Source of the DNA: an uncultured Patescibacteria group bacterium
Lineage (GTDB): Bacteria; Patescibacteriota; Microgenomatia; UBA1400; PJMF01
Reading direction: 5' to 3'
DNA length: 64,000 nt
NCBI GenBank assembly: GCA_905478415.1
Contig: CAJQIG010000002.1
Coordinates: 5,573-69,572, forward strand
Shown: one piece after another, positions 1,056 to 52,081 of the stretch
Layout: every line of letters starts with the position of its first letter
How positions within the stretch are numbered: position 1 is the first letter of the stretch
The notes under the pieces: generated by a model
Seen by the model: only the letters and a program-made list of their open reading frames with translations
Database searches by the model: none
Told to the model about the DNA's origin: nothing
Translations under genes and position numbers: made by a program

Positions 1056-2963
1056 ATGTATAAGCTGTTTTTTGTGCCTTCTTTGGCACTCAGAAAGCCA
1101 ACACACATGATTAGCGCATCAACAGACACACCAGCCACACCAACAGAAAACCAACCAGTTATGGCAACTACGCCTGTTAATAACGCTCCAACCCCTCCTA
1201 GAGCACCTCAAAAGACTAGTAGTCTTCCTTTGAAAATGATTCTGGGAATTGCATTGTTACTTCTACTTGTTTTAGGAAGTGGCGTTGGACTCTATCTTTC
1301 ACAACAAAGTCAAAATATTCGTCCTCAAGCAGCAATAGCCTGTGGAAACATTACTTGTAAAGATGGCAGAACAGCAGGCTCTGACTGTAGTGCTCCTCAA
1401 TCTAGCTGTGAAAAACGCGCTGAAGAATTCTGTGGAGTTGGAAATGTTCAAAGTACTAGCTCTAACCCTTCTTCGTGTGATGGAGGTAGTTCTTCAAGCT
1501 GTGCATATCCATACTGCGATGCTACTTGCGGTGATACAAGTTGTTCAGTTTCTTGTCAATCAGGAACAAGCTGTACAACTGGTAAAAATACATTCGTTTG
1601 TAGCGGAAAAAGTGGTTCTGGTTGTAATGAAGCAATGGGCAGTTATCTTCCAGCTCTTTCAAATAACTCTGGTAGTGTTGGTACTATTACTGAAGAAAAA
1701 TGGTGTACGACTATTCAACTTGACGCTTGGGCTAAAAATTCAGGCGGCAGTGCACAAGAAACCGCTGCTCGAGTCGTCTATATTGGTGATAATGGAGCTG
1801 TTTGTGTTGAAGGCACTGGCTGTAACCCTGACGACTTAGACTGGGACTGTTCAAAAACTCCTCCTGCTGGAACCTACACTTCTGCTTGTTCCCCTGCTAC
1901 TCAAACAGTTGGTAACTTAAGCTATCAGCTTAAAATCACCGGTACGCAACCTAAAGATGTAGGAGAAGTTGTCTTTTTCCTTGGATTTTATGGTAAATAC
2001 TATAACAAAGAGCTTACAGATGGTTTCTTAGGCAAACCAACTTGGTCAGTGACTTCTTGTCAGGCAAGTGTTGAAGGACCTGATAAATGGTGTGGATACT
2101 GGTTGAAACAAGTAAGTGACCCAAATCGTACTGCTGGTGGAGACACTATTACTTGGACCTGGGATGGATCTTTCAAACAACCAGCTCTTGATAACAAAAC
2201 TATTAATGAAATTGCCACAAAAATTGCAGCCATGAAAGCTGCAGGCACATTAGCCGCAGACTATAAAGTCCCTGTTCACGTCGAGTACCGACTACCCGAT
2301 GGATCTAGATATTCAGAAATGGGCACCCAATTCTTAGATATTTCTCCATACGCTTGTGCTCCTAAACCAAGCCCAACGCCGACACCTACTCCTACGCCAA
2401 CCCCGACCCCTACTCCGACGCCTACCCCTACCCCAACGCCTACACCTACTCCAACCCCAGGAGTGACTCCAACGCCGACGCCGACACCTACCCCGACACC
2501 GACACCAACGCCAACGCCGACACCTACCCCAATTGGCCCAATGTGTATGTCTATCACAATGCAAACACCTGCTGGCCAGCCAGTCAGAACCCCTAATGTC
2601 GGAAATACGGTACAGTTTACATGTGGACAAGTTGCTGGTGTAACTGATTACCAATTCAGAGTCATCACTCCAAGCCTAGCAGCAGTCACTGTCGAATCAT
2701 CTGGAAACATCTCTGTCCCTTATACAATAGAGGAGTTTGGAAGATACTATGCTCAGTGCAGAATCTGTCCAACAACTGGAGATGGAGTCCTCTGCCAAGA
2801 TTGGGAACCAGTTCCGGTAGTGTTCGAAGACACAGTTCAACAGTTGGGTGCTCCTCCAAGATCAGAAGTTATGAGTCGCGAATCAGAAACAATTCAACCG
2901 GTCATTGATGAAATACCAGAGAGAACTCAGTCAGATCGCTCACTAGATGTAATGACAAGATAG
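1056..2963 (+). CDS. Membrane-anchored or secreted cysteine-rich surface protein with a long PT linker; paralogous to the N-terminal half of 4530-7040
   Basis: N-terminal hydrophobic helix [26 protein letters not shown] is near-identical to residues ~95-125 of the 4530-7040 product. A Cys-rich module ([23 protein letters not shown]...) and a ~55-residue (PT)n linker are present. No LPXTG at the C-terminus. Start is uncertain (an alternative ATG lies at ~1107). Confidence 0.6.
2366..2532 (+). repeat. Imperfect hexanucleotide (CCNACN)n repeat encoding a PT linker
   Basis: The run ccaacgccgacacctactcctacgccaaccccgacccctact... is directly visible. Its reverse complement generates the spurious GV-repeat ORF 2276-2557. 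Confidence 0.9.
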
Positions 2964-2985: not shown

Positions 2986-4503
2986 ATGGAAACACAAAAC
3001 AACCAAACACCAGCATTCTATACAAAAACTCCAAATGAGAATTCTGGAGCAATGAATACTGGTACACCAAACCAGCCTCCTTCAAGAAAACCTATTACTA
3101 GGTCCAAATCGAAGTATGTCATGGCGATACTAGCTGTCTTCCTTTTTGTCATCGTTGGTGCTGCAGGAATTTTAATTTCCCAGCGACAGCGACAAGTTGC
3201 TGGCCCGGTAGCTCCAACAGCTCCAGAGTCAAAACCAAAAGCAGCTCGAGAAATCGAAGAAAGCTGTACGCTTGTCTTTGATGTTCCCGAACCAACTCCA
3301 ACACCAAGCCCAACCCCTACTCCAGTTCCTAGTGATAAAGCTAAATGTATTAGTAAAGAAACATACTACGCTGCTGAAGCTACTTCATCAGCAAGAGTAG
3401 TTGCTGATGCAGCTATGGTCGATCCAAAAGCCCCTCTTCCAGTGGGCACGGTACTTGAATACAGAATTACCGTTCGATCCCAAGGTACTACCACTGGTGA
3501 AGTCAATGTTATTGATACTTTGCCCGATGCAGTTGCATTTATCCCAGATGCAGATGCAAATACTCCAGATTGGATTGTTGATGACGAAGGTCGATTAACA
3601 ACAAACCTTGGAGTTCTAGAAGCAGGCGAACAGGTACTAAAAATAGTTGTCAGAGTAATTAAAGAATCTGCCGGCTTAAGTGGAACAGGTCTCACTTTCA
3701 AAAATCAGGTAGCTGTCACTACAGAACCAAGTACTACAACTGGCCGCGTTCACATGAGTGAGTGTGAAGTCACTAATGTTCTTCCAGAACCAACTCCTAG
3801 CCCAACGCCGACCCCTACTCCAACCCCCACACCGACGCCAACACCAACACCTACCCCTACGCCTGATGTAACTCCTACACCAACGCCAACCCCAACACCA
3901 GGAGTAACACCAACGCCTACGCCAGTCGTGTACTCATGTGGTAGCGTCTGTGAAACTGATGATCAGTGCCAGACTGGTAACGCAAGTCACTTCTGTAGTA
4001 ATGAGTTCGGCAACACTTGCAGACTCTACAGCAATCCATCAGATGCCAATTGTGAACCTGTGGTTGAAACCTATGCTTGTAACAGTACTTGCTCAACTGA
4101 TGAACAATGCTACACAGCCAATCCAAACTATGTCTGTAATGAAGGAGCCTGTCGCTTAGCTGAAAATACAGCTGCCACAAACTGTCTCCCCGTAGCCTAT
4201 GTTCCACCAGCTCCAGCTGTTGGCTGCAATGAAGTTTGTGAAACCAACGCTGACTGTAGCCAGGTTGACCATATCTGCTACACCACGGCTGACGGCACAA
4301 ACCGCTGTAGAACTGAAGAATACGTAAACAGCTCAACCTGTTCTGCTCCTCCTGCAACACAAACTGTCTATACAACTGTTGCTCAAGTACAGCCAGAATT
4401 ACCAGCTGAACTACCAAAGACAGGTGCATTCGACCTAGCTAACTGGCTCAAAGCAGGACTGGTCACACTTGGACTTGGAGCTGCACTCTTACTCTTGTTA
4501 TAA
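2986..4503 (+). CDS. LPXTG cell-wall-anchored surface protein with a DUF11-like repeat domain, PT linkers and three 6-Cys modules; paralogous to the C-terminal half of 4530-7040
   Basis: C-terminal LPKTG followed by a hydrophobic stretch ([26 protein letters not shown]) is a sortase sorting signal. An N-terminal TM helix is present. The segment [30 protein letters not shown] resembles a DUF11/conserved repeat domain. Three modules of the form C-x3-C-x5-C-x7-8-C-x6-8-C-x9-C are present. Confidence 0.7.
3787..3925 (+). repeat. PT-linker-encoding (CCNACN)n repeat
   Basis: The run ccaactcctagcccaacgccgacccctactccaacccccacaccgacgccaacaccaacacct is directly visible. Confidence 0.85.
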
Positions 4504-4529: not shown

Positions 4530-7040
4530 ATGATCAACGCATCAGGCATCGGAACGAACACGACACCAACTCCTCAGGGAATTCCTCCAATGCCAGGTGT
4601 TAATGGTCCTACACCCCCCTCCTTCAATCTCAACCAAGCTAACATCCCCAAAGAAAAGGCTAAAGCTGAAATAGCCAAGCCCGTTTCACCAGTAGCAGGT
4701 CAGCCGGCAGGTGCTCCAGTAACTGGACCCAAATTTCCAGATGCTGCAAAAGCTCCTATAACCACTTCTAATAATGGTGGTAACTCGCACCGTAAGAGAA
4801 AAGGCTCATTGAAAATTATCATTGGGGCTATTCTTTTATTCATTCTCGTATTAGGTAGTGGCGTCGGGTTATATCTTTCACAACAGAGTCAAGATATCGC
4901 TCCTCAGGCTGCTATTGTTTGTGGAAGTATTACCTGTACTGATGGCCGTAGTGCTGGCTCGGACTGCAGTGCTCCTCAGGCTGACTGTCAGCAACGTGCT
5001 AGAGAATTTTGTGGCAGCGATGAACAAGTCGCAAGTAAAGGTACAAAACCAGAATGGTGTGGCGGTGGTGGTGATACTTGCGCAACTTCAGACTGTCGTG
5101 GAACCTGTAATAACAACCCTTCTTGTAGTTTAACTGGTAACTGCAGTAAATGCAGTGGAACTGAAAAAGGAACTAAAACCTTCTACTGTGAAGGTAAAAG
5201 TGGCTCTGGTTGTAACGATGCTATGGGTAGCTATATGCCAGAATTTTCAAATCAATCTGGAAGTCTTGGTACTATTACTAAGGAAAAATGGTGCACTACT
5301 GTTCAGCTAGACGCTTTTGGCCCCGCTGGAAGTGATGCTCGAGTCGTCTACATCGGTAATAATGGACAAGTCTGTGTCGAAGGTAAATGTGATGACTACA
5401 AGAATGCTGAATTTTGGAACTGTGATCCACCAGCTTCTCCAACTCCTCCAGCTGGAACCTACACTTCTGCTTGTGCTCCTGCTACTCAGACTGTTGGTAA
5501 CTTAAGTTACAACCTTAAGATTACCGGAACTCAACCAGCAGATCTTGGACCTGTAGTTTTCTTCCTCGGATTTTACGGTAAATACTATAATAAAGAATTA
5601 ACTGATGGTTTTCTAGGTAAACCAACCTGGTCTGATACCTGCCAAGCAGGTATTGAAGGCGAAAGTAAATGGTGTGGATATTGGCTAAAACAAGTCAGTG
5701 ATCCAAACCCTGCTGCTGGTGGTGACACTATCTCCTGGACATGGGATGGCACCCATAAACAACCAGCCATTGACAACAAAACCATCAACGAAATTGCCAC
5801 AAAAATTGCAGCTATGAAAGCTGCAGGCACATTAGCCGCAGACTATAAAGTCCCTGTTCATGTCGAGTACCGACTACCTGATGGAACAAAATACAAAGGC
5901 ATGGGTACCCAATTCTTAGATATCACTCCTAGTGCTTGTGCTCCCGAGCCAAGCCCAACACCTAAGGCTGACCCCAGTCCTACGCCACTGGTCACACCAA
6001 CACCTACTCCGACACCAAGTCCAACGCCAACCCCTACCCCAGAGCCTGGTACCGCAGCTTGTGTGTGGAAACGTGCCTACACCAGTTACCGTGGTGACAC
6101 TGATGCGGCCCGATTGACTGTGGCTGACACCATTAATCCCGGAGATGAGTTTTTCTATCGAACTCGAATCACAGCTAGTACAACAGGTGTCATTGGTGCT
6201 GTTTCTCTCTTAGATGTACTACCAACTGGTATCACCTATGTGCCTGACGCACATAACACAACTGGAATTGAGTATAATGAGGCCGACAACTCTATTTCAA
6301 TGAGTTATGACACTCTTACTGACTACAAAGTCGTCAATTTCAAAGTTATGGTTAACGAGGATGTCGCAGATCAGACTACTATTGCTAACACAGCAATAAT
6401 CACCAATAGTAATAAAGCTTTGGAAGTCAGTGAATGTTCGACCGACATACTTATCTCAGATATTCCTCCAGAACCAACATACGAATGTAACTCACCATGT
6501 AGTGATGACTCCCAATGTCAGACAGCAAACGCCGAATACACTTGTAGTGTTGAAGATGGCAATGTCTGCCGACTCGACAGCAATAGAGCAGATGATATGT
6601 GTCAACCAAAGCCACTCACCTATTCTTGTAACTCTAGTTGTGAAACTGACACCGAATGTCAGACAGCGAATGAGAACTACATTTGTCAACCAGACGAGAA
6701 ACTCTGTCGCTTAGTTAGTAATCCGGACGAATCTAACTGTACAAATCCAGTAGCACCTTCCCCATCTCCAGCAATTGGCTGTAATGAAGAATGTTCTACA
6801 AACGCTGACTGTTCAAACAGTAACCACATCTGCTACACGACACCTGAAGGAACTAACCTCTGCAGATTAGAGAGCTACCTCAACAGCTCAAGTTGTACTG
6901 AACCAGTCGTACAAACAATCGTTGTGCAACCAGAGCTTCCACCGGAGCTACCTCAAACTGGCCCAACTAACTGGCTCAACTGGATCAAGACTGGATTCGT
7001 AACTCTGGGAGTTGGAGCAATCTTACTACTACTACTTTAA
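4530..7040 (+). CDS. Large LPXTG-anchored modular surface protein (836 aa); its architecture equals 1056-2963 plus 2986-4503 fused
   Basis: Pro-rich N-terminus, a TM helix, a Cys-rich module homologous to the 1056 product (MGSYMPEFSNQSGSLGTITKEKWCTTVQLDAF), a PT linker, a DUF11-like domain, three 6-Cys modules, then LPQTG plus a hydrophobic tail. Confidence 0.7.
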   Translation: MINASGIGTNTTPTPQGIPPMPGVNGPTPPSFNLNQANIPKEKAKAEIAKPVSPVAGQPAGAPVTGPKFPDAAKAPITTSNNGGNSHRKRKGSLKIIIGAILLFILVLGSGVGLYLSQQSQDIAPQAAIVCGSITCTDGRSAGSDCSAPQADCQQRAREFCGSDEQVASKGTKPEWCGGGGDTCATSDCRGTCNNNPSCSLTGNCSKCSGTEKGTKTFYCEGKSGSGCNDAMGSYMPEFSNQSGSLGTITKEKWCTTVQLDAFGPAGSDARVVYIGNNGQVCVEGKCDDYKNAEFWNCDPPASPTPPAGTYTSACAPATQTVGNLSYNLKITGTQPADLGPVVFFLGFYGKYYNKELTDGFLGKPTWSDTCQAGIEGESKWCGYWLKQVSDPNPAAGGDTISWTWDGTHKQPAIDNKTINEIATKIAAMKAAGTLAADYKVPVHVEYRLPDGTKYKGMGTQFLDITPSACAPEPSPTPKADPSPTPLVTPTPTPTPSPTPTPTPEPGTAACVWKRAYTSYRGDTDAARLTVADTINPGDEFFYRTRITASTTGVIGAVSLLDVLPTGITYVPDAHNTTGIEYNEADNSISMSYDTLTDYKVVNFKVMVNEDVADQTTIANTAIITNSNKALEVSECSTDILISDIPPEPTYECNSPCSDDSQCQTANAEYTCSVEDGNVCRLDSNRADDMCQPKPLTYSCNSSCETDTECQTANENYICQPDEKLCRLVSNPDESNCTNPVAPSPSPAIGCNEECSTNADCSNSNHICYTTPEGTNLCRLESYLNSSSCTEPVVQTIVVQPELPPELPQTGPTNWLNWIKTGFVTLGVGAILLLLL

Positions 7041-7122: not shown

Positions 7123-8127
7123 TTAGTTTACCTGATCAACTGACCTGTACACAGCTTCAGAAATCTCTTTGATTGTTTCTCTCAGCTCAACCATATCAGT
7201 TCCTTTGGACATCACACACAAAATATATGGCTTTTCTGGGTAGTAGATAACTCCGCAATCATGTAATTGTTTTTCTTCTATACCAACCTTACTGAGAATT
7301 CCAAATTTATGTGCAATAACAACTCCTTCTGGCAAACCAGCCACAAGACCATCCTTAAAATCTGCTTGGCTTAAGGTAAAAAGCAGATACTCTGAATTTT
7401 GCCTATAAAGGTATGAGGAATTGTACAAAACTCTAAAGAGAGAAGCATATTGTTTGACAGAAACAAAATCTTGAGGAGTTTCTTTGTACGCTAATGGAAT
7501 ACCTAGGTCACGATGCGTTTTAACCAAGTATTTTTCAGGCACGTCAGTTGCAAGCAATCGATAAGCAATGTTGTCAGAAAGAGTTAAAGCCCTCTCGATC
7601 AGTTGCTTTGCCGTATACGACTCACCCACAACCAAATCATCTTCAGGCTTCAAGTTTGACTCTAACTCCTCTGAATACACGATCTTCTTTAGAAGAGTGC
7701 TTGGCTCATTTTCAAAATACTTCATGTAGGCTATTGCAGTGGGGACTTTTAACAGGCTCTGAGGAGCAAACGTAGCTTCCTCATTGTATCCATACCAAGG
7801 ACCATTTGATAAATCACGATAATAAACACTAATCGTTTCTTCTGAGTTAGCTTCCACAACCTTCTCTACCGCTTCACTCATACTCTTCAGACTCGTATAT
7901 CCTTGATTATTTGTCTGCTCACACTCTAAGAGTGGATTTATAAAGGTAAATCCTGCTTCTCTTTTTTCGATGGAAAAATTTTCGTTCACCTTTGGCAGGA
8001 TTTTTGTTTTTTCTATCAGAGGTGATACAAAAATACCTAAAAAAAAGGTGGTTGATGCAGCTGTTACGGTTAGTAACAAAGTTTTTGCTGTAGGCATGTG
8101 TTTGAATAAAAAAAGTGAGTAGTACAA
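7123..8127 (-). CDS. Class-A beta-lactamase-like serine hydrolase (secreted or membrane-anchored)
   Basis: N-terminal hydrophobic segment. The SxxK-like FAPQSLLKV, the SDN loop LTLSDNIAYRLL and the KTG-like AHKFG occur in class-A order and spacing. Confidence 0.55.
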   Translation of the reverse strand: MYYSLFLFKHMPTAKTLLLTVTAASTTFFLGIFVSPLIEKTKILPKVNENFSIEKREAGFTFINPLLECEQTNNQGYTSLKSMSEAVEKVVEANSEETISVYYRDLSNGPWYGYNEEATFAPQSLLKVPTAIAYMKYFENEPSTLLKKIVYSEELESNLKPEDDLVVGESYTAKQLIERALTLSDNIAYRLLATDVPEKYLVKTHRDLGIPLAYKETPQDFVSVKQYASLFRVLYNSSYLYRQNSEYLLFTLSQADFKDGLVAGLPEGVVIAHKFGILSKVGIEEKQLHDCGVIYYPEKPYILCVMSKGTDMVELRETIKEISEAVYRSVDQVN

Positions 8128-8397: not shown

Positions 8398-9729
8398 ATG
8401 GAGAAGCTCATGCCATTATCGATACAAAGTATTCATCAAAAATTTCAGGCATTACAATCAGGGAGAGTTCAATCTCCCCAATATATTCTCTTTCCTGCTG
8501 CAACCCTAAAAATAACTCTCAATTCTGAGTGTACGATTGCTTGTGATGGATGTTTTCATCAATCAAGCAATGAACCATTTAAAAGGTTCTTAGAAACTCG
8601 AAAACTGAGTGTTGAGCAAATGAAAGAACTTATCCTGGAAGCTCAAGTTGAATTTGGAGTTCCTCTAGTTGAATTTTCAGGAGGCGAACCGACCCTAGAC
8701 CGGAAAGCACTGTTAGAACTTATTGCTTTCTGTACTGGGCTTGGAATTAAAACCCGCCTGATTACCAACGGATCTCTAGTTGGAGGTGAAGGAACATACA
8801 AAGAAAGTTTGCGCCCCTATCTCTCACCAGATTTAAAAAATCTGTCTGGCATTCAATATGCCCAAGAATTAAAATTAGCTAGACTAACTTCTGTAATTGT
8901 AAGTATAGATGTCATGCATACCTCTTCGCAGGAAGAACATGCGCTCAGCACATTGCAGCTGCATAACAAAGTGCCTGTCACCATTGTAGGTTTAGCAATT
9001 CGGAATCTCATGTCTGTTGGTTTTGGATTTGAACCAGAAGAAAATGCGGGTAGAGCTAATAAAACACTCCGCATTGGCGTCACAGCTGCAGGAGATGATT
9101 ACAAGCCCTCCTTTGAGCTGGTCAAAACAGCTCTTGGACTTGCAGCGTCAGACTGGGAAGATTTACTCCCTGTTGCTGATGCCAAAACGTACCGTGTTGT
9201 TCAAAGGAAAAGTGGTCAGAGAGTTTACATCCACAGAAATCAAACTGCAGATATTGGATTCGGAAAAACGCTTCCAATAAATCGACTGAGAGGACCACTG
9301 GGAGAAACTGTCTATGACAGAATGTGTTACCACTTTGCAGGGCCCATCGGTAGCGACGGTGGCCCAAATGGTGAACTTTTTGTTGATAATACGGGATATG
9401 TGTATACCTGCCCCATGGGTTCCTACAGGATCGGAAGTGTCCATACACATACGCTTGCAGGAATTGTTGGCTATGTAAATGCTGGCACACCACCCAAAGA
9501 ATACGAAGTTGGAGTTGGTATGTTTCGAATGCTCAAGATGATTGGGTACTTAACCGAGTACTCCAATTCAATGGGCCTGGCATACCAAATTCTGGTGCAC
9601 ATGGATCCCTCGCTTGTGGAAGAAATTGAAAGCCAACGCTCCCACTCGGGGGCCTGTCATACCCTTGGACACAGCAAAAAGTACTTGGATATGCTGACCC
9701 ACTTTTTTGAGAATGAATTGATAGAATAA
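8398..9729 (+). CDS. Radical SAM domain protein of unknown specificity
   Basis: CTIACDGC is the CxxxCxxC cluster. The glycine-rich SAM motif VEFSGGEPTL follows. Only three further Cys, so no SPASM or twitch domain. A long AT-rich intergenic region lies upstream. Confidence 0.7.
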   Translation: MEKLMPLSIQSIHQKFQALQSGRVQSPQYILFPAATLKITLNSECTIACDGCFHQSSNEPFKRFLETRKLSVEQMKELILEAQVEFGVPLVEFSGGEPTLDRKALLELIAFCTGLGIKTRLITNGSLVGGEGTYKESLRPYLSPDLKNLSGIQYAQELKLARLTSVIVSIDVMHTSSQEEHALSTLQLHNKVPVTIVGLAIRNLMSVGFGFEPEENAGRANKTLRIGVTAAGDDYKPSFELVKTALGLAASDWEDLLPVADAKTYRVVQRKSGQRVYIHRNQTADIGFGKTLPINRLRGPLGETVYDRMCYHFAGPIGSDGGPNGELFVDNTGYVYTCPMGSYRIGSVHTHTLAGIVGYVNAGTPPKEYEVGVGMFRMLKMIGYLTEYSNSMGLAYQILVHMDPSLVEEIESQRSHSGACHTLGHSKKYLDMLTHFFENELIE

Positions 9730-9766: not shown

Positions 9767-9839
9767 TGAGCCGAGAGGGACTTGAACCCCCGACCAGTAA
9801 GGTATAAGCTTACCGCTCTACCAGCTGAGCTATCGGCTC
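9767..9839 (-). tRNA. tRNA with anticodon UAU (Ile, decoding AUA)
   Basis: Hand-folded cloverleaf on the minus strand: acceptor GAGCCGA/TCGGCTC; U8; D-arm GCTC-AGCTGGTA-GAGC; anticodon stem GTAAG/CTTAC with loop C-U-UAU-A-C; variable loop TGGTC; T-arm GGGGG-TTCAAGT-CCCTC; discriminator A. No encoded CCA. Confidence 0.75.
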
Positions 9840-9896: not shown

Positions 9897-10958
9897 GTGG
9901 TATACTACCCTGGTATGAAAAAGAAATTCACCTCCTTATTTACTACTCTAAAGGAACGATGGAAACTTACAATTTTTGTCTTGTTACTTCTCGTAGGTGG
10001 AGCATTCTTTTTCTTTAAACAAAGTGCTGCCAGTGAAGTTGAGCAAACGTTTATCACCCCAGAAAAAGGAAATATTACTGAGTCTATCGAACTCTCCGGA
10101 ACAGTAGATGCCAAAGAGCGAGCCCGCCTCAGATTTATTGCTGGTGGAAAGCTTACCTATCTGGGTGCTCAAGAAGGAGACCAGGTCAAAAAATGGCAAA
10201 CACTTGCAACTATCGATCAAGCTAGTTTACAAAAACAACTTGAACAAAACTTAAATCTCTACATGAAAGAACGCTGGGACTGGGAGCAAACACAAGATAA
10301 CATTGATGGCAACTACTTGGGAGAAGACGATGCCAGTCGCCGAACGATCGATAAAGAACAGTTTGACCTTAACAACACTGTTCTGACCGTAGAAATTCAA
10401 GATATTGCTATCAAAAATACCCGGTTGACTGCCCCATTTGAGGGTATCTTGGTAACATCACCTGCATCAGTAACTGGAGTCCAGTTGTTAGCTACTGATT
10501 ACTTCGAAATTGTGAACCCTGACTCAATTATCTTCAGAGCCTATGTTGATGAAGAAGATGTAGCTAAAATTCAACTCAACCAAATGAGCAATATTACTCT
10601 TGATGCTTTCGACAACGAAATTATAGATAGCACAGTGAACTATATAGCATATACCGCTCTCCAAAGCTCTGAGGGAACGGTATTTATTGTTGAATTCCCC
10701 CTAGAATACAGTGAAACAAGCCTGCCACTGAGAATTGGCATGAATGGAGATGTGCAAGTTGTCCTGAACCAAAAAGAAGACGTCATGACCATTCCAATTA
10801 TAGCTACCATTCAACGTGATGATCGCACCTATGTCCAAGTCAAAGCAGAAAATGGAACTCTTGAAGAGCGTGAAATTGAAATTGGCTTAGAGTCAGAAGA
10901 TTCGGTCGAAATTATTTCAGGACTTACCGAAAGTGACCAAGTCTTACTGCCAGAATAA
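9897..10958 (+). CDS. Efflux transporter periplasmic adaptor (HlyD/MacA family membrane fusion protein)
   Basis: N-terminal TM helix, coiled-coil middle region and a beta-barrel-like C-terminus. It immediately precedes the ABC ATPase and permease. Probable true start at MKKKF (~9915). Confidence 0.6.
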   Translation: MVYYPGMKKKFTSLFTTLKERWKLTIFVLLLLVGGAFFFFKQSAASEVEQTFITPEKGNITESIELSGTVDAKERARLRFIAGGKLTYLGAQEGDQVKKWQTLATIDQASLQKQLEQNLNLYMKERWDWEQTQDNIDGNYLGEDDASRRTIDKEQFDLNNTVLTVEIQDIAIKNTRLTAPFEGILVTSPASVTGVQLLATDYFEIVNPDSIIFRAYVDEEDVAKIQLNQMSNITLDAFDNEIIDSTVNYIAYTALQSSEGTVFIVEFPLEYSETSLPLRIGMNGDVQVVLNQKEDVMTIPIIATIQRDDRTYVQVKAENGTLEEREIEIGLESEDSVEIISGLTESDQVLLPE

Positions 10959-10963
10959 CGCGT

Positions 10964-11683
10964 ATGCTACTCCGCTTAACTACCGTCTCAAAACACTACA
11001 AGCTCGGTGGCACAGTCATTCGAGCCCTCGATAAAGTCACTGTTGATATTGACAGTGGTGAGTTTGTGGCCATCATGGGACCTTCTGGAAGTGGAAAATC
11101 AACCTTTCTCCAGGTAGCAAGCATGCTGGCACAACCCAGTGATGGAACTATCTTTCTGAAAGGAATTGATGTCACTGAGTATAATGAAATTGAGAGTGCG
11201 AAACTTCGAAATAAAGAAATTGGTTTCGTCTTTCAACAGTTTAATCTGCTCGCTAAAACAACAGCTCTTGATAATGTAAAACTACCCCTTGTCTATGGCC
11301 AGGTATCTGATCGAGAACAAAACAGACGTGCCAAAGAAATGCTTGATCGAGTTGGGCTCTCTGATCGAATGAACAACACCTCTGCTCAACTTTCTGGTGG
11401 CCAGCAACAACGAGTAGCCATAGCTCGAGCGCTGGTAAATGAACCAGCAGTCATTTTTGCTGACGAACCAACCGGAAACCTCGATACTAAAAGTGGTGAA
11501 GAAATCATGAAACTCTTGGTCAACCTTCACAAAGAAGGTAAAACCATTATTATGGTCACCCATGAAGAAGAAATTGCCGCCTTTGCTGACCGACTAATTA
11601 TGTTCAGAGATGGAAACATCCTTTCTGATACAAAAAAACGAAAAACAAAGAAAAAAACTTCTAAGAAGAAAGGCAAAAAATAA
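10964..11683 (+). CDS. ABC transporter ATP-binding protein (MacB/LolD-like)
   Basis: Walker [13 protein letters not shown] signature [15 protein letters not shown] and Walker [12 protein letters not shown]. Confidence 0.9.
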
Positions 11684-12894
11684 TGGGAAATGCCTTTAAA
11701 CTTGCCATCAAAGCTATCTGGATCAACAAAACTCGCTCATTTTTGACTACGCTTGGCGTTATTATTGGTGTTGGCTCAGTCGTGCTCCTCACCTCAATTG
11801 GAACTGGCCTTTCTGCCTTTGTCCAAGAACAATTCGACGCACTTGGTGCTAATACCGTTATTGTCTACCCAGGTGATATCTTTGGAGAAGATGGTGGATT
11901 TAGTCAAGAAGCACAACTCAGTGCGCTTTCTAACTCAAAATTAAAAATGAGTGACGTACAAGAACTAAGACGATTGCGAGAGTTCCTTGACATTGTAGTA
12001 CCAATGAACACCAGGCAGGAAACACTTTCATACCGAGGTTCATCAAGAAAAGTAAGCATTGTAGGTACCACACACGAATTCATCATTGCAAAAGCAAATA
12101 TTTTGCCAGAAACAGGCCGTTTTTTTACTAAAGAAGAGTCTGAAGGTGCCAAGAAAGTTATTGTCTTAGGACCAACTATTAAAGAAGACCTCTTCGGTAA
12201 TATCGATCCAATTGGCAAAAAAATGAGAGTTGGTTCAACCACCTACCGAGTTATCGGTGTAATGGAGGAAGCTGGAGGCGGTGGTTTTGGAGGCCCTTCA
12301 TTTGATACCTATGCATATATTCCTATCGAAACTTCTTTCAAACAGTTTGATAACAAGACTATTATCGAAATTATCACTAAAACAAAAAGTACTGATAATA
12401 TTCCAGAATCCATCGCAGCTATCGAGAAAACCATGTTAAAGAAATTCAAAGAAGATGAGTTTTCTGTTGTCGAACAATCTGATATTTTAGAAACAATTCA
12501 AGAAATTCTCGGAGTCCTTACACTTGGCCTCGGTGGTATCTCCAGTATTTCTCTAGTTGTCGGCGGTATTGGCATCATGAACATCATGCTTGTTTCAGTC
12601 ACCGAGCGCACCAAAGAAATAGGCCTCAGAAAAGCCCTCGGTGCTACCCCAAATGTGATTATGTTACAGTTTTTAATCGAGTCTGCACTGCTTTCAATCC
12701 TTGGTGGAACAATTGGTATCATCATTGCTCTTTTTGGAACTTGGGGACTACAATCCTTTTTTCCAGCCAAAGTCACCTTGGATGCTATTTTGCTCGCGTT
12801 CGGCGTTTCAACTGCCGTCGGCCTTATTTTCGGCGTGGCTCCAGCTCGACGAGCTGCTGGCCTTTCACCAATCGAAGCGCTTCGCTACGAGTAA
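11683..12894 (+). CDS. ABC transporter permease, MacB/FtsX family
   Basis: N-terminus [34 protein letters not shown] is typical of MacB-type permeases. A large periplasmic loop and a C-terminal FtsX-like 3-TM bundle are present. Start overlaps the ATPase stop. Confidence 0.85.
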   Translation: MGNAFKLAIKAIWINKTRSFLTTLGVIIGVGSVVLLTSIGTGLSAFVQEQFDALGANTVIVYPGDIFGEDGGFSQEAQLSALSNSKLKMSDVQELRRLREFLDIVVPMNTRQETLSYRGSSRKVSIVGTTHEFIIAKANILPETGRFFTKEESEGAKKVIVLGPTIKEDLFGNIDPIGKKMRVGSTTYRVIGVMEEAGGGGFGGPSFDTYAYIPIETSFKQFDNKTIIEIITKTKSTDNIPESIAAIEKTMLKKFKEDEFSVVEQSDILETIQEILGVLTLGLGGISSISLVVGGIGIMNIMLVSVTERTKEIGLRKALGATPNVIMLQFLIESALLSILGGTIGIIIALFGTWGLQSFFPAKVTLDAILLAFGVSTAVGLIFGVAPARRAAGLSPIEALRYE

Positions 12895-17359: not shown

Positions 17360-19711
17360 TTACAAATTCGACCGACTCGTAATCTCAGCCTGCACCACAT
17401 CCACATCTTTTCCATACTTGAGCCGAGATAACTGTTTAATCATATCTGCCTGTTTTGGGTTCATACGAGCTTCAATAGCAGCCATATCTTTCATCAATGA
17501 CATACTAAATGGCGGCACTGGCTCATTCTTTACGATTGTCTTTACATAGACATGATACTTTTCGATGTTTGTGAGATCTCCTTCGTTAAAAGTTGGCGCA
17601 AACTCATGCTGCAAAAAGTTTGCATCAGGAACACCGACGCGGAACGAAACCATAGTACCAACGTTACCAAAAACAGCATTCTTAACTTCTTCGTCAATCT
17701 GACTGACAAACTGATTGGCCACAATCAAGTTGAGACGATACTTGCGAGCCTCTGAAAGAATGACCGCAAAATCTTCGGTAGCATAATTCTGGAACTCATC
17801 AACATACAGGAAGAAGTCTTTACGATCGTGCATCGGAATGTCCTGACGAGACATAGCAGCAGTCAGTACTTTTGGAACTAAAATCAGTCCCAAAAACTTA
17901 GCGTCTTCCTCTCCTAGTACACCTTTTGAAAGGTTGCAGAGAATAATTTTTTGTTCATCCATAGCTTTACGAAAATTAAACGAACTTTCTGGCTGACCAA
18001 TAATATTACGCATGGTTTTGTTAGTCACAAACCGACCAAACTTAGAAACAATGTAATCCAAAACTTCGGACTTGTGGAAGTCAGAGGTTTGAGCCATCTG
18101 ATCAGTCCAGTACCGACGCACCACTGGATCTTTTACAAGCGGTAGCATTTCGTCAATATACTTTTGATCGGTTAAAATACGCACCAACTCAATAAAAGTA
18201 GTGCCTTTTTTGTACATAATAGTCAACATAGCATTACGAATAGCGTGCTCAAACCGAGGACCAATGATACCAGTGCGGTGCGGGTCATACAGTTTATACA
18301 TCAAACCAATAATTGATCCCACCACAAAGTGACGTTGCTCTTCGCTATCCGCCTCCATCATATTCAGACCCATTGGACGACTAAGGTCAGAAGGGTTGAA
18401 GTAAATGACATCGTCGGCACGTTCTGGAGGCATGAGTTGTAAGATATCTTCGATAAATTCTCCATGTGGGTCGACAGCACAAACACCATTGCCATTTTCA
18501 ATATCCTGCAGGATCATTTCTTTCAAAAACTCTGACTTACCAGTACCAGTCTTTCCAATAATGTACATATGCCGTCTACGGTCATCATCACCAATGTATA
18601 CTTCTCTCGATTCTCCTCTGTACTGAGACTTACCCAGTCTGAGTCCCTTGGTTGGAATATTGTGAGGAGCCGGAGCATGTTTAGCGTTCAGCCATCTGAT
18701 AAAGTGAGTTTCGATCATTTTACTTGGCAGATGGAACATGGTAGCTAATTCTTCGGAATTAAGAATCATTGTGTTCCGATTAAAAAGAGGCATGTAGCGA
18801 TACAAAAAGTCGATCATGAACAAGTGTTTCAAAAATACTCGTCCTTTTTTAATATTATTGTAGGCACTGCTGAATTGAGCAAAAGCTCCCAAAATGTTAT
18901 TAATGTGAGAGTCAGCAGAGTTTTCATCTGGAGAAGAAACAACAACTCTCAGAGCCACTGTGAAACCTACTTTTTCTGCTTTTGTGGTAATCGCCTCCAT
19001 CTCTTTTGGATCATGGTTGTACGAAGCTTTTTCTGGATCTGCTTCACGCTTTTTCTGCTTCTGTACGTACGATCGACCTTGATCCTGCCATTTTTTTGAT
19101 GCTGGCTGGAGCAAGATCTGCACAACAGCTCCTTCTCCTGGGCCCATCTTTGCAAGCGCAGAAGTAATCAACGATAATCCATCAGTTGGTAAATCTTTAT
19201 ATGGTTTCAGCGGTAAGTACTTGGCACGATCAAACGTCAGCGAAGCAAATGAAACTTTTCCTTTTTCACTGAAAATATTTATTTCGTCAACTTCCTTGAT
19301 ATCTGCGTTTGGATAAGCACCATGAACCTGCTTTTCGACGAAATCTCTAATTCCTCTGGAACAACTAACGTAAAAAGCAATTTCTTCTTTAAGTGCCACA
19401 ATCTCAAACGAGATAATATCGTCCGTCTTTAAAAAGGAAGTAACTCCCCTGCTTTTAAGCGCATAGAGGGCTGCAAACATTTGTTCGGCAGCATCAATTT
19501 TCGTTTCATTGTCTTTTGGTACTCTAATCATGAGCGTTACAAAGCTCAGCGCATACTTTTCACGATTACGATGCTTAAACCACTGCAGACCCATGTAGGC
19601 AAACACTCCAAGAATGATCCATAGAAAGAGCATGGCAAACAGCGCAGCTGTCACCGCTATGAGTTGTTGTAAAACTGTATTTGGATCCATTGCGTTTCCT
19701 CTAAAAGACAA
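17360..19711 (-). CDS. Type IV secretion ATPase, VirB4/TrbE/CagE-like (FtsK-HerA superfamily); a VirD4-type coupling protein is less likely
   Basis: N-terminal TM helix. Walker A IIGKTGTGKSEF sits at ~residue 385 of 783, which is VirB4-like placement. A VDPHGEF motif and Walker B FFLYVDEFQNYAT are present. Confidence 0.6.
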   Translation of the reverse strand: MSFRGNAMDPNTVLQQLIAVTAALFAMLFLWIILGVFAYMGLQWFKHRNREKYALSFVTLMIRVPKDNETKIDAAEQMFAALYALKSRGVTSFLKTDDIISFEIVALKEEIAFYVSCSRGIRDFVEKQVHGAYPNADIKEVDEINIFSEKGKVSFASLTFDRAKYLPLKPYKDLPTDGLSLITSALAKMGPGEGAVVQILLQPASKKWQDQGRSYVQKQKKREADPEKASYNHDPKEMEAITTKAEKVGFTVALRVVVSSPDENSADSHINNILGAFAQFSSAYNNIKKGRVFLKHLFMIDFLYRYMPLFNRNTMILNSEELATMFHLPSKMIETHFIRWLNAKHAPAPHNIPTKGLRLGKSQYRGESREVYIGDDDRRRHMYIIGKTGTGKSEFLKEMILQDIENGNGVCAVDPHGEFIEDILQLMPPERADDVIYFNPSDLSRPMGLNMMEADSEEQRHFVVGSIIGLMYKLYDPHRTGIIGPRFEHAIRNAMLTIMYKKGTTFIELVRILTDQKYIDEMLPLVKDPVVRRYWTDQMAQTSDFHKSEVLDYIVSKFGRFVTNKTMRNIIGQPESSFNFRKAMDEQKIILCNLSKGVLGEEDAKFLGLILVPKVLTAAMSRQDIPMHDRKDFFLYVDEFQNYATEDFAVILSEARKYRLNLIVANQFVSQIDEEVKNAVFGNVGTMVSFRVGVPDANFLQHEFAPTFNEGDLTNIEKYHVYVKTIVKNEPVPPFSMSLMKDMAAIEARMNPKQADMIKQLSRLKYGKDVDVVQAEITSRSNL

Positions 19712-38245: not shown

Positions 38246-39550
38246 GTGAATCTGAGAAGATATAAGAAAGTATGTTTAATGAAACAAAAGATACTTGGCA
38301 TTTTTATTGTCTTTGCTAGTGTTTTTTTGGCGACTAGTCAGGCAAATCAAGCTTATGCTGCTGCCTGTGCTGGAGTTATTAGCGGCATCGGTGACACTCT
38401 CCCCCCCTACTACTCTGGACTAGAGCATGTGATTGTTATGGATATTTCCTCCTACGATCCAAACGACCGGTACTACGTCAAAGTAAAAAATACAAAACTC
38501 ACCGATGATCAAGCTCAAACAGGAAGTTTTCGTTTAAACGATGGAGTATCAGGATCAAATGGTGATTCAAGATGGGAAGTCAGCGGTGGAAAACTCTACA
38601 TCACCATAACTGAAAAAGAAGCACTTGCCCCAAATACAACAGATGGAGAGAACGGTTCTCACTTTGTCGAACTCTACAAACATGAATTTGGATCAAATAG
38701 ATTTTGTGAAATTGGTTACTATTACACACCAAAGAATACCCTCGCAGGAAAATGTACTTTTACTATTACCCAACAACGAACTGGGGCAGATGGAAACACT
38801 CAGGCCTGTTATGCAGCAGGCCAAGCCTCGTGCATGGAAGATGACAAACCGGTTCAAATTGAGGTCTCTGGCCTTGAAGATGCAGATGGACCGTACAATG
38901 GAGCCGTTAGATTTGTCATAGGTGCTGAAGGCTGGGATGCAGGAGGAGATCATATAGAAACATCAACAAATGGCACAGCTACAACCTCAATAACTCCAAA
39001 CTCATCAGCTTCATTTGCAGAAGGAAAAACATATACCGTCAAAATGGAAGCGTCTAGATTAGGAATCAACTTTGACTTTCCAGACCAAAGTTGTACAACA
39101 AAAATTACAATTTCTGACTATTGTGCTCCAGAGCAGTGTGGAGATGAGGCTACAATCGGAGGTGCTCAAGCAATTGGTCCAGACGAATTCAAACTTTGCT
39201 CACAAATAAAAGACCCCGTTGCATTCGAAGCTTGCACTACTTGCGCCGGCGGCGAAGATGGAGAAGATGGCATCTGGACAGCCATTGGCTGTATTAGCAG
39301 AGAACCTGAAGAAATTGTTGGAAAACTCATCAGATTGGGCCTGAGTATGGGTGGTGGAATTGCGCTTCTGATGATCTTATCTGCTGGATTTACACTAACT
39401 GTTTCACAAGGAAACCCACAGAAGGCAGGTCAAGCTAAAGAGATGATTACTGCTGCGGTCACAGGCCTACTCTTCATTATCTTTTCTGTCACTATTCTAC
39501 AATTTATTGGCTTTTCTGTGCTCAAGATACCTGGATTTGGAGGGCCATAA
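38246..39550 (+). CDS. Secreted protein with a ~370-aa extracellular N-domain fused to a C-terminal VirB2/TrbC-like two-TM pilin module
   Basis: Signal peptide. The C-terminus GIALLMILSAGFTLTVSQGNPQKAGQAKEMITAAVTGLLFIIFSV has the same TM-loop-TM module as the 49801-54266 family. Confidence 0.5.
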   Translation: MNLRRYKKVCLMKQKILGIFIVFASVFLATSQANQAYAAACAGVISGIGDTLPPYYSGLEHVIVMDISSYDPNDRYYVKVKNTKLTDDQAQTGSFRLNDGVSGSNGDSRWEVSGGKLYITITEKEALAPNTTDGENGSHFVELYKHEFGSNRFCEIGYYYTPKNTLAGKCTFTITQQRTGADGNTQACYAAGQASCMEDDKPVQIEVSGLEDADGPYNGAVRFVIGAEGWDAGGDHIETSTNGTATTSITPNSSASFAEGKTYTVKMEASRLGINFDFPDQSCTTKITISDYCAPEQCGDEATIGGAQAIGPDEFKLCSQIKDPVAFEACTTCAGGEDGEDGIWTAIGCISREPEEIVGKLIRLGLSMGGGIALLMILSAGFTLTVSQGNPQKAGQAKEMITAAVTGLLFIIFSVTILQFIGFSVLKIPGFGGP

Positions 39551-40083
39551 TGAAAAAAACGTATAGATTATTCTTAACGCTCACACTCTCTCTCCTTTTA
39601 TTGAGAAAGACTCAAATTGTTTTTGCTCAAACTTGCTATGATGACTGCATTTCTGGCGGAAACACCCCAATAGAGTGTAATGCTGCTTGTGGAAACGCTG
39701 TCCCAAATTTTGATGACCCAAATGACGCCATCAACCCAGTCGAAGCCCCAACTGCAGAAACCTTTGACGCCCTCAACCCACTTCAAATTGGTGGGGGTGA
39801 GACTATTGATGATGTAGCTGCTAGTGAGTATGCTGACCAACTTTCTACACCTGGTGGTATAGTAACCCGCCTCCTCGAATTTATTTTTCCTATAGCTGGC
39901 CTGATCCTCTTCTTAATGATCTCCTGGGGTGGCTTTGAAGTTCTTATGGGTAGTGGTGATAGTGGTAAAGTACAAGCCGGAAAACAGAGAGTCACAGCTG
40001 CGATTGTGGGCTTCCTGGTGCTCTTCTCTTCATACTGGCTGATTCAAATTGTTGAAGCAGTTTTTGGTGTCGTTATTTTCTAG
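39550..40083 (+). CDS. VirB2/TrbC-like pilin-family protein (paralog)
   Basis: Signal peptide. C-terminus LILFLMISWGGFEVLMGSGDSGKVQAGKQRVTAAIVGFLVLFSSYWLI: TM helix, short polar loop with GSGDSGK, then a second TM helix. Confidence 0.55.
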   Translation: MKKTYRLFLTLTLSLLLLRKTQIVFAQTCYDDCISGGNTPIECNAACGNAVPNFDDPNDAINPVEAPTAETFDALNPLQIGGGETIDDVAASEYADQLSTPGGIVTRLLEFIFPIAGLILFLMISWGGFEVLMGSGDSGKVQAGKQRVTAAIVGFLVLFSSYWLIQIVEAVFGVVIF

Positions 40084-50156: not shown

Positions 50157-50615
50157 ATGAAAATTCGTTCTCATTTCACCACTGTCATCTCTACCGCTTC
50201 TTTTTTTCTACTCGCCCTTATCCCCCAACTTAGAATTGTTTCTGCCGTCTTTGCTCAAGATGATCCAATTGGAACAATCGATAAACCAGAAGCTGTTGCA
50301 AACTTTGACAACGCTGGCGGAATTGGTGAAGGTGATATTGGAGTACTGTTTTTCTTCTCAAGAATGATTAGCTATATCACCATTGTTGCAGGTATTTGGT
50401 CATTCTTTAACTTGATCTTGGCTGGATATACCTATGTAACTTCTTCAGGAAACGCACAAAGTCACACCACCGTTCGAGATAAAATCACCATGAGCATCTT
50501 GGGAATGGTTTTGATTGTCACTGTCTATGCCATCGCCGGTATCATTGGCACTATTTTCTTTGGCAACTCCCTTTACTTCCTCAATCCAACCATCGAAGGA
50601 CCGGCTGCGATATAA
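50157..50615 (+). CDS. Pilin-family paralog 2
   Basis: Signal peptide. ITIVAGIWSFFNLILAGYTYVTSSGNAQSHTTVRDKITMSILGMVLIVTVYAIAG. Confidence 0.5.
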   Translation: MKIRSHFTTVISTASFFLLALIPQLRIVSAVFAQDDPIGTIDKPEAVANFDNAGGIGEGDIGVLFFFSRMISYITIVAGIWSFFNLILAGYTYVTSSGNAQSHTTVRDKITMSILGMVLIVTVYAIAGIIGTIFFGNSLYFLNPTIEGPAAI

Positions 50616-50630
50616 CCAAGGTACTGATTT

Positions 50631-51149: not shown

Positions 51150-51208
51150 AAGTACAGAACTTGAAGAAACGAGTACAAAAGAAGTAATAATTAGGATATA
51201 CTATACTT

Positions 51209-51577: not shown

Positions 51578-51579
51578 TT

Positions 51580-52068: not shown

Positions 52069-52081
52069 TGGTAAAAATTTT

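Follow-up and report, generated by a model that had tools for sequence, protein, structure and literature searches.

The window, by which we mean the whole 64,000-nucleotide stretch of DNA analysed here (contig CAJQIG010000002.1 of assembly GCA_905478415.1, positions 5,573 to 69,572), contains two genes for exported surface proteins, each of which carries three small six-cysteine units directly upstream of a C-terminal sorting signal. The first protein consists of an N-terminal transmembrane (TM) or signal segment, a DUF11-type domain, a Pro/Thr-rich (PT) linker, the three units and the sorting signal, and is 64% identical to an ortholog, P0037 (MCB9800968.1), which confirms its start and end. 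Its head scores 28.2 bits with TIGR01451, above the curated cutoff of 24, and 22.6 bits with Pfam DUF11, slightly under the cutoff of 24.6. The second protein places an N-terminal TM segment, a large Cys-rich N-domain, a PT linker and a DUF11-like domain ahead of its own three units and sorting signal. Its N-domain is paralogous to the ORF at 1056-2963, and it shares 100% identity with P0001 across the C-terminal 325 amino acids. The features are as follows.

2986..4503, + strand: gene (ORF) for a 505-aa exported surface protein, start and end backed by ortholog P0037
3784..3924, + strand: Pro/Thr-rich linker, aa 267-313, from head domain to unit cassette; also a DNA-level imperfect repeat
3937..4053, + strand: unit 1 of ORF 2986-4503, type A; 39 residues, loops of 3, 5, 8, 7 and 10
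4078..4185, + strand: unit 2 of ORF 2986-4503, type A/B; 36 residues, loops of 3, 5, 8, 4 and 10
4225..4341, + strand: unit 3 of ORF 2986-4503, anchor-proximal type C with a short loop 3; 39 residues, loops of 3, 5, 6, 9 and 10
4390..4500, + strand: C-terminal sorting signal of ORF 2986-4503, a motif and a 25-residue hydrophobic tail ending LLLLL, without a basic tail
4530..7040, + strand: gene (ORF) for an 836-aa exported surface protein
6486..6602, + strand: unit 1 of ORF 4530-7040, type A, CNSPCSDDSQCQTANAEYTCSVEDGNVCRLDSNRADDMC; the sequence used for the single-unit AlphaFold model
6627..6740, + strand: unit 2 of ORF 4530-7040, type A/B, CNSSCETDTECQTANENYICQPDEKLCRLVSNPDESNC; found by regular expression and unit profile
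6780..6896, + strand: unit 3 of ORF 4530-7040, anchor-proximal type C, CNEECSTNADCSNSNHICYTTPEGTNLCRLESYLNSSSC; found by regular expression and unit profile
6927..7037, + strand: C-terminal sorting signal of ORF 4530-7040, QPELPPELPQTG; a motif and a 25-residue hydrophobic tail

A regular-expression scan of all six frames of the window recovered exactly six units, three in each of these ORFs and none elsewhere. Every copy scores 45-64 bits with the unit profile (domain E-values 1e-13 to 1e-19), the highest being unit 1 of ORF 2986-4503 with the A1 profile (64 bits), while the remaining window sequence yields no score better than E about 0.07. The units are a genuine repeated six-Cys mini-domain, far beyond chance, and the scan and profile scores together rule out a chance or low-complexity origin. 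The sequence-only reading had counted three copies per ORF, quoted peptides that prove correct, and gave a span for the first ORF (3940-4330) which covers its three units almost exactly. The opening C-x3-C-x5-C that it described is retained; the intervals that it gave thereafter (x7-8, x6-8, x9) are corrected here, and the spacing of the window units is C-x3-C-x5-C-x(6 or 8)-C-x(4-9)-C-x10-C. The conserved T/S-D/N-x-x-C-Q-T-x-N and C-R-L positions to which it drew attention are real, and are kept across the family. Its suggestion of a Cys-module toolkit shared with 'pilin' genes at 50631 and 52082 did not survive: these are PF18895 T4SS-pilin paralogs whose six cysteines are spaced otherwise, and the unit profile fails to match them (domain E about 13-15).

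The unit family and its architecture

A word-index homology search with an alignment of 12 units gave three candidates and no match. An exhaustive profile search of 1.84 billion proteins, using a profile built from the 12 units, returned 412 cluster representatives at E<=1e-3, 128 of them at E<=1e-10, and as many as nine stretches matched in a single protein; the named sources are Pacebacteria, Woesebacteria and Patescibacteria. We examined in detail 468 units from 153 proteins, drawn from the best 150 of the 412 matches and the window proteins. The family exists and is large, and its cysteine framework is essentially invariant: of 451 full-length units, 448 have all six cysteines, and the remaining three merely reflect shifts in the alignment. 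An arginine directly after CysV (R31) is present in 450 of the 468 units, across which L32, N4, N35 and S38 are also strongly conserved, and T9, N/D10, N17 and Y/H20 are further conserved non-Cys positions. Three loops are of constant length (loop 1, 3 residues; loop 2, 5; loop 5, 10); the other two, loops 3 and 4, are variable, the latter (CysIV-CysV) ranging from 4 to 16 residues. Proteins carry one to eight copies, most commonly three, joined by short, Pro-rich linkers with a median length of 8 residues. Full-text literature searches for descriptions of the six-Cys unit found none, and we regard it as a new, uncatalogued domain family of a familiar kind.

The units were thought on first reading to lie proximal to a wall anchor, and an LPxTG-like C-terminal signal does adjoin them. 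An N-terminal hydrophobic segment occurs in 137 of 146 full-length members, and LPx[TSA]G with a hydrophobic tail of about 25 residues ends 120 of the 153 proteins, in an extended motif, QPxLPxELPx[TSA]G followed by the hydrophobic C-terminus, with the last cysteine a median of 22 residues ahead of it (IQR 18-27). In the window proteins the pentapeptides are LPKTG and LPQTG; in both, the 25 residues that come next are mostly hydrophobic. A basic tail is mostly absent (K/R within the last 8 residues in 2 of 120 anchored members), and the standard anchor models TIGR01167 and PF00746 mostly miss the signal, matching 3-5 of 81 relatives; on the signal of ORF 2986-4503, TIGR01167 reaches 10.6 bits against a cutoff of 15.9 (E 0.74). 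The unit nearest the anchor is a distinct, position-specific subtype: among the 110 anchored proteins listed, from a total of 120, it bears the type C deletion in loop 3 in 102, and the units upstream of it are mostly type A/B. Heads are diverse, with DUF11 in 26 of 81 members, DUF7927 in 15, bMG10 in 15 and RrgB-type isopeptide domains in 14. A head domain is essentially missing in 44 of 137 members (about 30%), in which the units are the only folded ectodomain. In a second architecture, represented by P0111, P0149 and P0141, three units lie between two TM segments and no LPxTG is present.

Conservation is stronger in the cassette than in the heads that it carries. Between orthologs and homologs, identity is 64-73% in the units and 73-94% in the signal, and 16-58% in the heads. 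At the DNA level, unit copies are only 70-72% alike (72% between the unit 3 region of ORF 4530-7040 and 4207-4345), and the duplications are therefore old and maintained. A 5-sequence cassette alignment served for the genome scan. The gene cluster PGK, two or three unit-bearing genes, then HlyD/ABC/FtsX, is kept in relatives. Neither a sortase gene nor the TLxTC motif was found in the window (33 ORFs scanned with Pfam) or in ten related loci; sortases are reported to be common in CPR (PMC6851277).

Predicted fold and nearest relatives

The small fold that had been suspected is supported by AlphaFold, which confidently models unit 1 of ORF 4530-7040 as an independent fold (pLDDT 89) with a short helix and a beta-hairpin. 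The predicted layout places a helical turn between CysII and CysIII, and CysIV and CysV on the hairpin. A triple-unit model likewise agrees with the earlier image of beads on a string: the units reach about 80-90 pLDDT, and since the linkers reach only 57-72 and pTM is 0.34, fixed inter-unit packing is not predicted. In the 186-residue model, a low-confidence terminal helix (residues 163-185) is predicted within the sorting signal of ORF 4530-7040.

Knottins, or inhibitor cystine knots (ICK), have disulfides I-IV, II-V and III-VI, the third of which threads the ring formed by the other two. A fold search with the predicted unit returned ICK toxins as the nearest solved folds, under significance. 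Each unit would contain three intradomain disulfides, and as modelled the pairing may be II-IV and III-V with a I-VI clasp, the core of a disulfide-directed hairpin and not a true knot. Co-loss of cysteines gave no pairing signal, as all six are kept in 448 of the 451 units noted above. Covariation analysis of 466 units by mean-field DCA and MI-APC mainly reflected invariant columns and the differences between types A and C; the contacts that emerged were all in the hairpin (21-33 and 6-29, for instance) and do not tell the pairings apart.

The unit is not a fold orphan, having partial, sub-threshold kinship to knottins and to the potato carboxypeptidase-inhibitor (PCI) family. It shares with them a length of about 40 residues, six cysteines, the opening C-x3-C-x5-C with 'CN-x-PC-x-T-x-(A/D)-DC-S', a short helical turn before CysIII and, in prediction, a disulfide-bearing beta-hairpin. 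It differs in its spacing after CysIII (x6/8, x4-9 and x10, as against x5, x2 and x6 in PCI) and in the predicted position of the hairpin, between CysIV and CysV, whereas that of knottins lies between CysV and CysVI. The unit is, moreover, an internal tandem repeat of large anchored bacterial proteins, whereas a knottin is a free secreted peptide. No Pfam or NCBIfam model covers the unit, in keeping with the initial impression that it was no named domain; neither an EGF-like nor any other known family matches it cleanly.

Possible roles of the cassette

We propose, as the best reading, that the unit cassette is a disulfide-locked, knottin-like pedestal, set just before the anchoring signal in exported proteins of Microgenomates-type CPR, and we judge the chances for and against this reading to be evenly balanced. 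After export, the six cysteines would oxidise to three intradomain disulfides, and each oxidised bead would become rigid and resistant to proteases. Strung together, the beads would then give the protein an unvarying pedestal at its foot, within the thin wall or immediately outside it, with variable heads (DUF11, isopeptide/Ig-like and others) perched on the PT linker above, and with the anchor-proximal unit as a specialised subtype. We infer that the signal is processed by a sortase and that the units have a mechanical role. Several observations sit uneasily with the proposal, namely that the window and the ten related loci yielded neither a sortase nor a Dsb gene, and that the basic tail of a classical LPXTG signal is missing here. 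The headless members and the dual-TM proteins are unexplained by a pure spacer role, and long PT linkers already supply spacing. The conserved polar residues N4, T9, N/D10, N17, R31, N35 and S38 exceed the needs of a spacer, and could mark a binding surface.

The main rival, which would accommodate some of these same points, is that the unit is a ligand-binding or adhesive module, attached by non-covalent contacts to an envelope polymer or S-layer of its own cell, or binding host surfaces, with a site that would comprise the variable hairpin loop 4 and the conserved polar/aromatic face. Such a role, which we consider possible if somewhat doubtful, is favoured by the 44 of 137 exported members that have no other folded ectodomain, by P0111, P0149 and similar dual-TM proteins that display only three units, by strong conservation of N4, N17, Y/H20, R31, N35 and S38, and by a loop 4 that varies from 4 to 16 residues on a fixed framework, as well as by the redundancy of further spacing beside the PT linkers. 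Many knottin-type mini-proteins also bind targets (PMC5753296). However, the units exceed the heads in ortholog conservation, unlike a host-facing, diversifying binder; they are fixed at the cell-proximal end and not at the distal tip; and Pfam and NCBIfam detect no ligand, lectin or CBM family. A broader and rather unlikely extension is that the units are a bacterial branch of the knottin/disulfide-directed-hairpin superfamily, serving as a functional surface element beyond a spacer. Together with the tail-less QPxLPxELPx[TSA]G signal they would constitute a lineage-specific display cassette, in which the type C unit would dock to an envelope component or processing enzyme, and headless unit-only proteins would mediate envelope organisation or host contact.

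The likeness to PCI raises the prospect that the units are protease inhibitors of this knottin family (PF02977), blocking host or environmental proteases. When the unit profile was compared with PDB sequences, chains of the PCI family appeared at E 0.13-0.17 with a common CNKPCKTHDDCS motif, and hhalign of the unit profile against PCI and the tomato inhibitor gave 72.5% probability (P 3e-5); PF02977 also matches 3 of 81 relatives, P0034 attaining 34.7 bits (gathering score 25) by partial matches. Yet the alignment is confined to the N-terminal half, from CysI to CysIV (profile positions 2-24 of 46), the loops beyond CysIII differ in length, no unit is matched across the domain at the gathering score, and the window proteins have no PF02977 match at E<=1. 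When the cassette profile and the most PCI-like units were searched against PDB sequences, no match was returned. PCI inhibits through a free C-terminal tail after its last cysteine, which enters the carboxypeptidase active site; the units have no free tail, CysVI being followed by Q/T/E-P and then by a linker, the next unit or the sorting signal, and inhibition of this kind appears very improbable. We think just as poorly of the idea that the cysteines bind a metal (zinc or an iron cluster) in place of forming disulfides, in cells of which many are anoxic and lack respiratory chains for Dsb-type oxidation. Neither a Dsb nor a VKOR gene was seen among the 33 window ORFs scanned, as this idea would have it. 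Against it, the proteins are exported, with the N-terminal hydrophobic segment and C-terminal anchor signal described above; the C-x2-C knuckles usual in zinc sites are missing from C-x3-C-x5-C, which no conserved His accompanies; the unit's nearest neighbours in sequence and in fold are disulfide-knotted peptides; and a disulfide-formation protein is reported from at least one CPR genome (PMC4736985). It is scarcely credible that the unit represents a diverged version of a named repeat (EGF-like, WAP, Myxococcus cysteine-rich repeat or EB module). WAP comes nearest, at 10.7 bits (E 0.69) on unit 1 of ORF 2986-4503 and in 6 of 81 relatives at E<=1, but its gathering score is 20.8, and it has eight cysteines in four disulfides where the unit has six cysteines. 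EGF models have no match at E<=1 in the window proteins and are not among the 25 most frequent families in the 81 relatives, and the EGF C-x-C is missing, as CysIV and CysV are separated by 4-16 residues and never by 1. The Myxococcus repeat has no Pfam or NCBIfam match in the window proteins (E<=1) or the 81 relatives. Thresholds for such repeats are never reached on the units, whether in the window proteins or in the 81 relatives, and profile searches of all PDB sequences returned no significant match.

Known surface systems offer parallels to the proposed pedestal. Myxococcus TraA (PMC3325183) similarly combines a variable N-terminal recognition domain with tandem small Cys-rich repeats, thought to serve as a rigid stalk, and a C-terminal sorting tag, although its repeat family is unrelated, its tag is MYXO-CTERM and its bearer is a Gram-negative proteobacterium and not a CPR organism. 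LPXTG substrates of Gram-positive bacteria share the N-terminal export signal, the C-terminal LPx[TSA]G with its hydrophobic segment, repetitive Pro-rich wall-proximal regions, and DUF11, isopeptide and Ig-like heads. The unit proteins thus have the LPXTG-like pentapeptide and hydrophobic segment of that class; unlike its members they lack the positive tail, carry the extended motif, and are mostly missed by standard anchor models. Sortase substrates of Firmicutes or Actinobacteria seldom have disulfide-rich beads. Within CPR, Cys-rich extracellular proteins have been noted before: those of Peribacteria are large surface proteins rich in Cys, with a suggested role in rigidity or attachment, from genomes that also encode sortase (PMC4736985). 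That account deals with the composition of very large proteins from a different CPR lineage and their weak similarity to the Myxococcus repeat; it defines neither the six-Cys unit and its framework nor the link between unit and signal.

Meaning for the CPR cell surface

The unit family adds a large, sequence-coherent bacterial family to the class of small disulfide-rich, knottin-like folds, in which bacterial knottins had no experimental structure as of 2017 (KNOTTIN database paper, PMC5753296). Because it is small, confidently modelled and ultra-conserved, the unit is an easy target for structure determination, and it may be useful as a stable display scaffold.

CPR (Patescibacteria) are ultra-small bacteria, mostly uncultured episymbionts, whose biology is thought to hinge on the cell surface. 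Most CPR surface proteins are annotated merely as 'hypothetical'. The unit gives annotators a searchable domain that flags hundreds of exported, probably wall-linked proteins, and divides the constant base of each from the variable heads which are the likely host-contact parts.

The six-cysteine unit and its predicted fold

The surface-protein genes at 2986-4503 (505 aa) and 4530-7040 (836 aa) are present as the sequence-only reading described them, with three copies each of a six-cysteine unit of about 40 residues. Scanned by regular expression in all six reading frames, the window yielded six units in total and no more:

3937-4053, 4078-4185, 4225-4341: units of ORF 2986-4503
6486-6602, 6627-6740, 6780-6896: units of ORF 4530-7040

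Each copy scores 45-64 bits against a unit-derived profile (domain E 1e-13 to 1e-19), and this profile, run against the six-frame translation, gave non-unit sequence in the window no score better than E ~0.07. The proposed six-cysteine framework held, while the exact loop lengths required slight correction to C-x3-C-x5-C-x(6|8)-C-x(4-9)-C-x10-C. Because the copies are only 70-72% alike as DNA, the duplications are old and maintained, rather than a recent repeat expansion. The Pro/Thr-rich (PT) linkers are coded by imperfect short DNA repeats (ACnCCn; 2276-2557, 3777-3912, 5936-6047), on the reverse strand of which long spurious ORFs arise, such as 2276-2557 (-) and 3917-4429 (-).

As had been suspected, the unit corresponds to no named domain: no Pfam or NCBIfam family covers it in the window proteins, where these libraries report a DUF11/TIGR01451 head domain (N-terminal of the unit cassette), low-complexity noise in PT linkers and a sub-threshold LPXTG anchor; the best match overlying a unit is WAP (E 0.69). 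Among 81 family members, no such family covers the units either, save partial PF02977 matches in three proteins. No solved structure was sequence-related to the unit, the best being potato carboxypeptidase inhibitor (PCI) chains (E 0.13-0.17); larger profiles matched no solved-structure sequence, and full-text literature searches found no description of the unit.

A small disulfide-stabilized fold had been anticipated, and AlphaFold2, given unit 1 of ORF 4530-7040 and a 12-unit alignment, predicted a small fold with confidence (mean pLDDT 89.3), comprising a short helix (residues 10-14) that ends at CysIII, a beta-hairpin (20-23/29-32) bearing CysIV and CysV, and isolated bridges at residues 6 and 35. 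In a three-unit cassette model this fold recurs in each unit (~80-90 pLDDT by 10-residue blocks), and given linkers of 57-72 pLDDT and a pTM of 0.34 the model resembles the beads on a string originally envisaged, followed by a low-confidence helix across the hydrophobic tail. Foldseek returned sub-threshold neighbors only, namely scorpion toxins and the spider ICK toxin JzTx-34 (TM 0.47-0.57, E 3.5-8.8).

The unit opening, CN-x-x-C-x-T-x-A/D-D-C-S, resembles that of PCI (CNKPCKTHDDCS), and partial matches, confined to profile positions 2-24 of 46, bring the family member P0034 above the PF02977 gathering score. Alignment of 466 units with PCI and the tomato inhibitor (hhalign) reached only from CysI to CysIV, at 72.5% probability (P 3e-5); the PCI sequence used agrees with the PCI fragment from the solved-structure sequence search. 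In an ungapped register, CysI, II, III and IV would fall on PCI C8, C12, C18 and C27, with CysV one residue off C34, in agreement with the predicted hairpin position. From this placement of CysI-V we infer that II-IV and III-V may form a knottin 'disulfide-directed beta-hairpin' core, with a I-VI clasp joining the domain ends; the classical I-IV/II-V/III-VI knot is a possible alternative, and neither cysteine co-loss nor covariation separates the two.

Extent of the family and specialization of its units

A word-index search found only six relatives. Exhaustive HMMER searching of 1.84 billion representatives with a 12-unit alignment (A1) returned 412 proteins at E<=1e-3, of which 128 reach E<=1e-10 and 44 reach E<=1e-30; a single protein contains as many as nine matched stretches. 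In a sample of 468 units from 153 proteins (the best 150 matches and the window proteins), all six cysteines are complete in 448/451 full-length units and Arg directly follows CysV in 450/468; conservation is also strong at L32, N4, N35, S38, T9, N/D10 and N17. Loops 1, 2 and 5 between successive cysteines are constant (3, 5 and 10 residues), and loops 3 and 4 vary. Units are also position-specific, the anchor-proximal one forming a distinct subtype, type C, in which loop 3 is two residues shorter, Gly precedes CysI and Tyr35 is frequent (consensus GCNxxCxTNADCSNSxHIC...CRLxxYxNSxTC). The loop-3 deletion marks this unit in 102/110 of the anchored proteins listed (120 anchored in all); units upstream are mostly type A or B, and both window proteins follow the order A-B-C.

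Members with a named source derive from Candidatus Pacebacteria, Candidatus Woesebacteria, 'Patescibacteria group' and unclassified 'bacterium' MAGs, together with several labeled 'Pseudomonadales'. Gene content, a gene order common to these contigs and the window, 74-76% identity to the window phosphoglycerate kinase (PGK) in two related loci (L003 and L005), and unit-bearing genes in common with a Pacebacteria contig indicate that the latter label is a taxonomic error. It is attached to CPR-type loci L003, L005, L006, L007 and L010, and to protein P0037 (MCB9800968.1). Features characteristic of CPR bacteria occur in the window too, among them multiple PF18895 T4SS-pilin paralogs.

Protein architectures and gene neighborhood

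An N-terminal hydrophobic segment is present in 137/146 full-length members, and 120/153 terminate in LPx[T/S/A]G plus a mostly hydrophobic stretch (median 25 residues) that typically closes with ...LLLLL; in only two of the 120 signals is there a basic residue within the last eight positions. QPxLPxE usually precedes this motif, giving an extended, highly conserved QPxLPxELPx[TSA]G that standard LPXTG models mostly miss. The window signals have the form found family-wide (P0002-P0154):

4390-4500: C-terminal signal of ORF 2986-4503
6927-7037: C-terminal signal of ORF 4530-7040

Proteins carry one to eight units (mode three) joined by linkers of median 8 residues, and a median of 22 residues (IQR 18-27) separates the last cysteine from the signal motif. 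Heads, surveyed in 81 members, are varied and include DUF11 (26), DUF7927 (15), bMG10 (15) and RrgB-type isopeptide domains (14). Between orthologs or homologs, identity is 64-73% in units, 73-94% in the signal and 16-58% in heads; the cassette is thus more conserved than the heads.

In a second architecture (P0111, P0149, P0141), an N-terminal TM segment is followed by three units, a linker, a second TM segment and a cytoplasmic tail. Some 12 further members share it, including P0107, P0116, P0122, P0130, P0131, P0144, P0147, P0148, P0150 and P0154; LPxTG is absent, the units are the entire ectodomain, and the low-complexity tail ends in a conserved M-(V/L/I)-(D/E)-R-L-K-x-K-x-I-x-P-P. In a third architecture, units stand upstream of a C-terminal '...QCR(I/L)C...' domain. 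ORF 1056-2963 ends in this domain and has lost its units, of which homologs in related loci retain one or two. In relatives (P0023, P0064, P0071, loci L006-L010) the domain follows one to six units. A paralogous, large Cys-rich N-terminal region without Pfam or NCBIfam match is common to 1056-2963 and 4530-5920 (aa ~95-465 of both proteins); the whole proteins (ORFs 1056-2963 and 4530-7040) contain 27 and 42 cysteines, respectively.

Related contigs keep the order PGK, two to three unit-bearing genes in tandem, HlyD/ABC/FtsX; in the window a further block lies between surface genes and transporter:

52-1005: PGK
7123-8127 (-): beta-lactamase-family gene (PF13354, E 1e-32)
8398-9729 (+): radical-SAM gene (PF04055)
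9767-9839 (-): tRNA
9897-12894: HlyD-like protein, ABC ATPase and FtsX permease (MacAB-like); order from PGK kept in L001, L004, L008 and L010

As tblastn detected no homologs of the beta-lactamase-like or radical-SAM genes in the related loci, the block seems to be a lineage-specific insertion. Scanning 33 window ORFs revealed no homolog of sortase or Dsb proteins, and no TLxTC motif was found in the window or related loci.

The idea of a Cys-module toolkit shared with the genes at 50631 and 52082 was not upheld: these encode PF18895 T4SS-pilin proteins whose six cysteines are spaced differently (for example C-x5-C-x5-C-x-C-x5-C-x7-C) and do not match the unit profile.

38246-39550 (+): 434-aa pilin paralog with 13 cysteines
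50631-51149 and 52082-52660 (+): pilin paralogs with their own six-Cys inserts, unrelated to the unit

The T4SS-like gene set (17360-19711 (-), 38246-40083 (+), 50157-53797 (+), 54292-57660 (+)) comprises a TrwB/VirD4-like ATPase, seven PF18895 paralogs and a 1122-aa protein with 26 cysteines and a sub-threshold SLT_3 lysozyme-like match (E 1.7e-05; 25.7 bits vs. a cutoff of 27).

Possible function and significance

The analysis establishes that the units form a genuine family of exported six-Cys domains, so far uncatalogued, which belongs to Microgenomates-type CPR bacteria and is closely tied to an atypical LPxTG-like signal. As for mechanism, we would give about an even chance to the likeliest reading, in which the units make up a disulfide-locked pedestal cassette that would resist proteases, sit at the cell-proximal end of surface proteins and bear variable heads on PT linkers, and whose anchor-proximal unit would be specialized. 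Stalks of small disulfide-rich repeats beside a sorting tag are already a familiar theme, Myxococcus TraA being an example. A pure stalk role sits uneasily with the 44/137 exported members that have almost no folded extracellular part besides units, and with the dual-TM architecture. These features, and the conserved polar face of the unit, instead favor the main rival, a somewhat doubtful one in our estimation, namely that the units bind something, be it in the envelope of the cell itself or on the surface of a host. It is unlikely that the units act as PCI-like inhibitors or hold a metal cluster; a known repeat in disguise is similarly unlikely.

Cysteine-rich surface proteins of CPR bacteria have already been remarked on, in general comments that extend to sortases (PMC4736985, PMC6851277). 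New here are the defined unit, its cysteine framework, subtypes and extent (>400 clusters at 50% identity), and the coupling of units to a tail-less, extended LPxTG signal. QPxLPxELPx[T/S/A]G may define a CPR-specific sorting signal, possibly served by a dedicated sortase.
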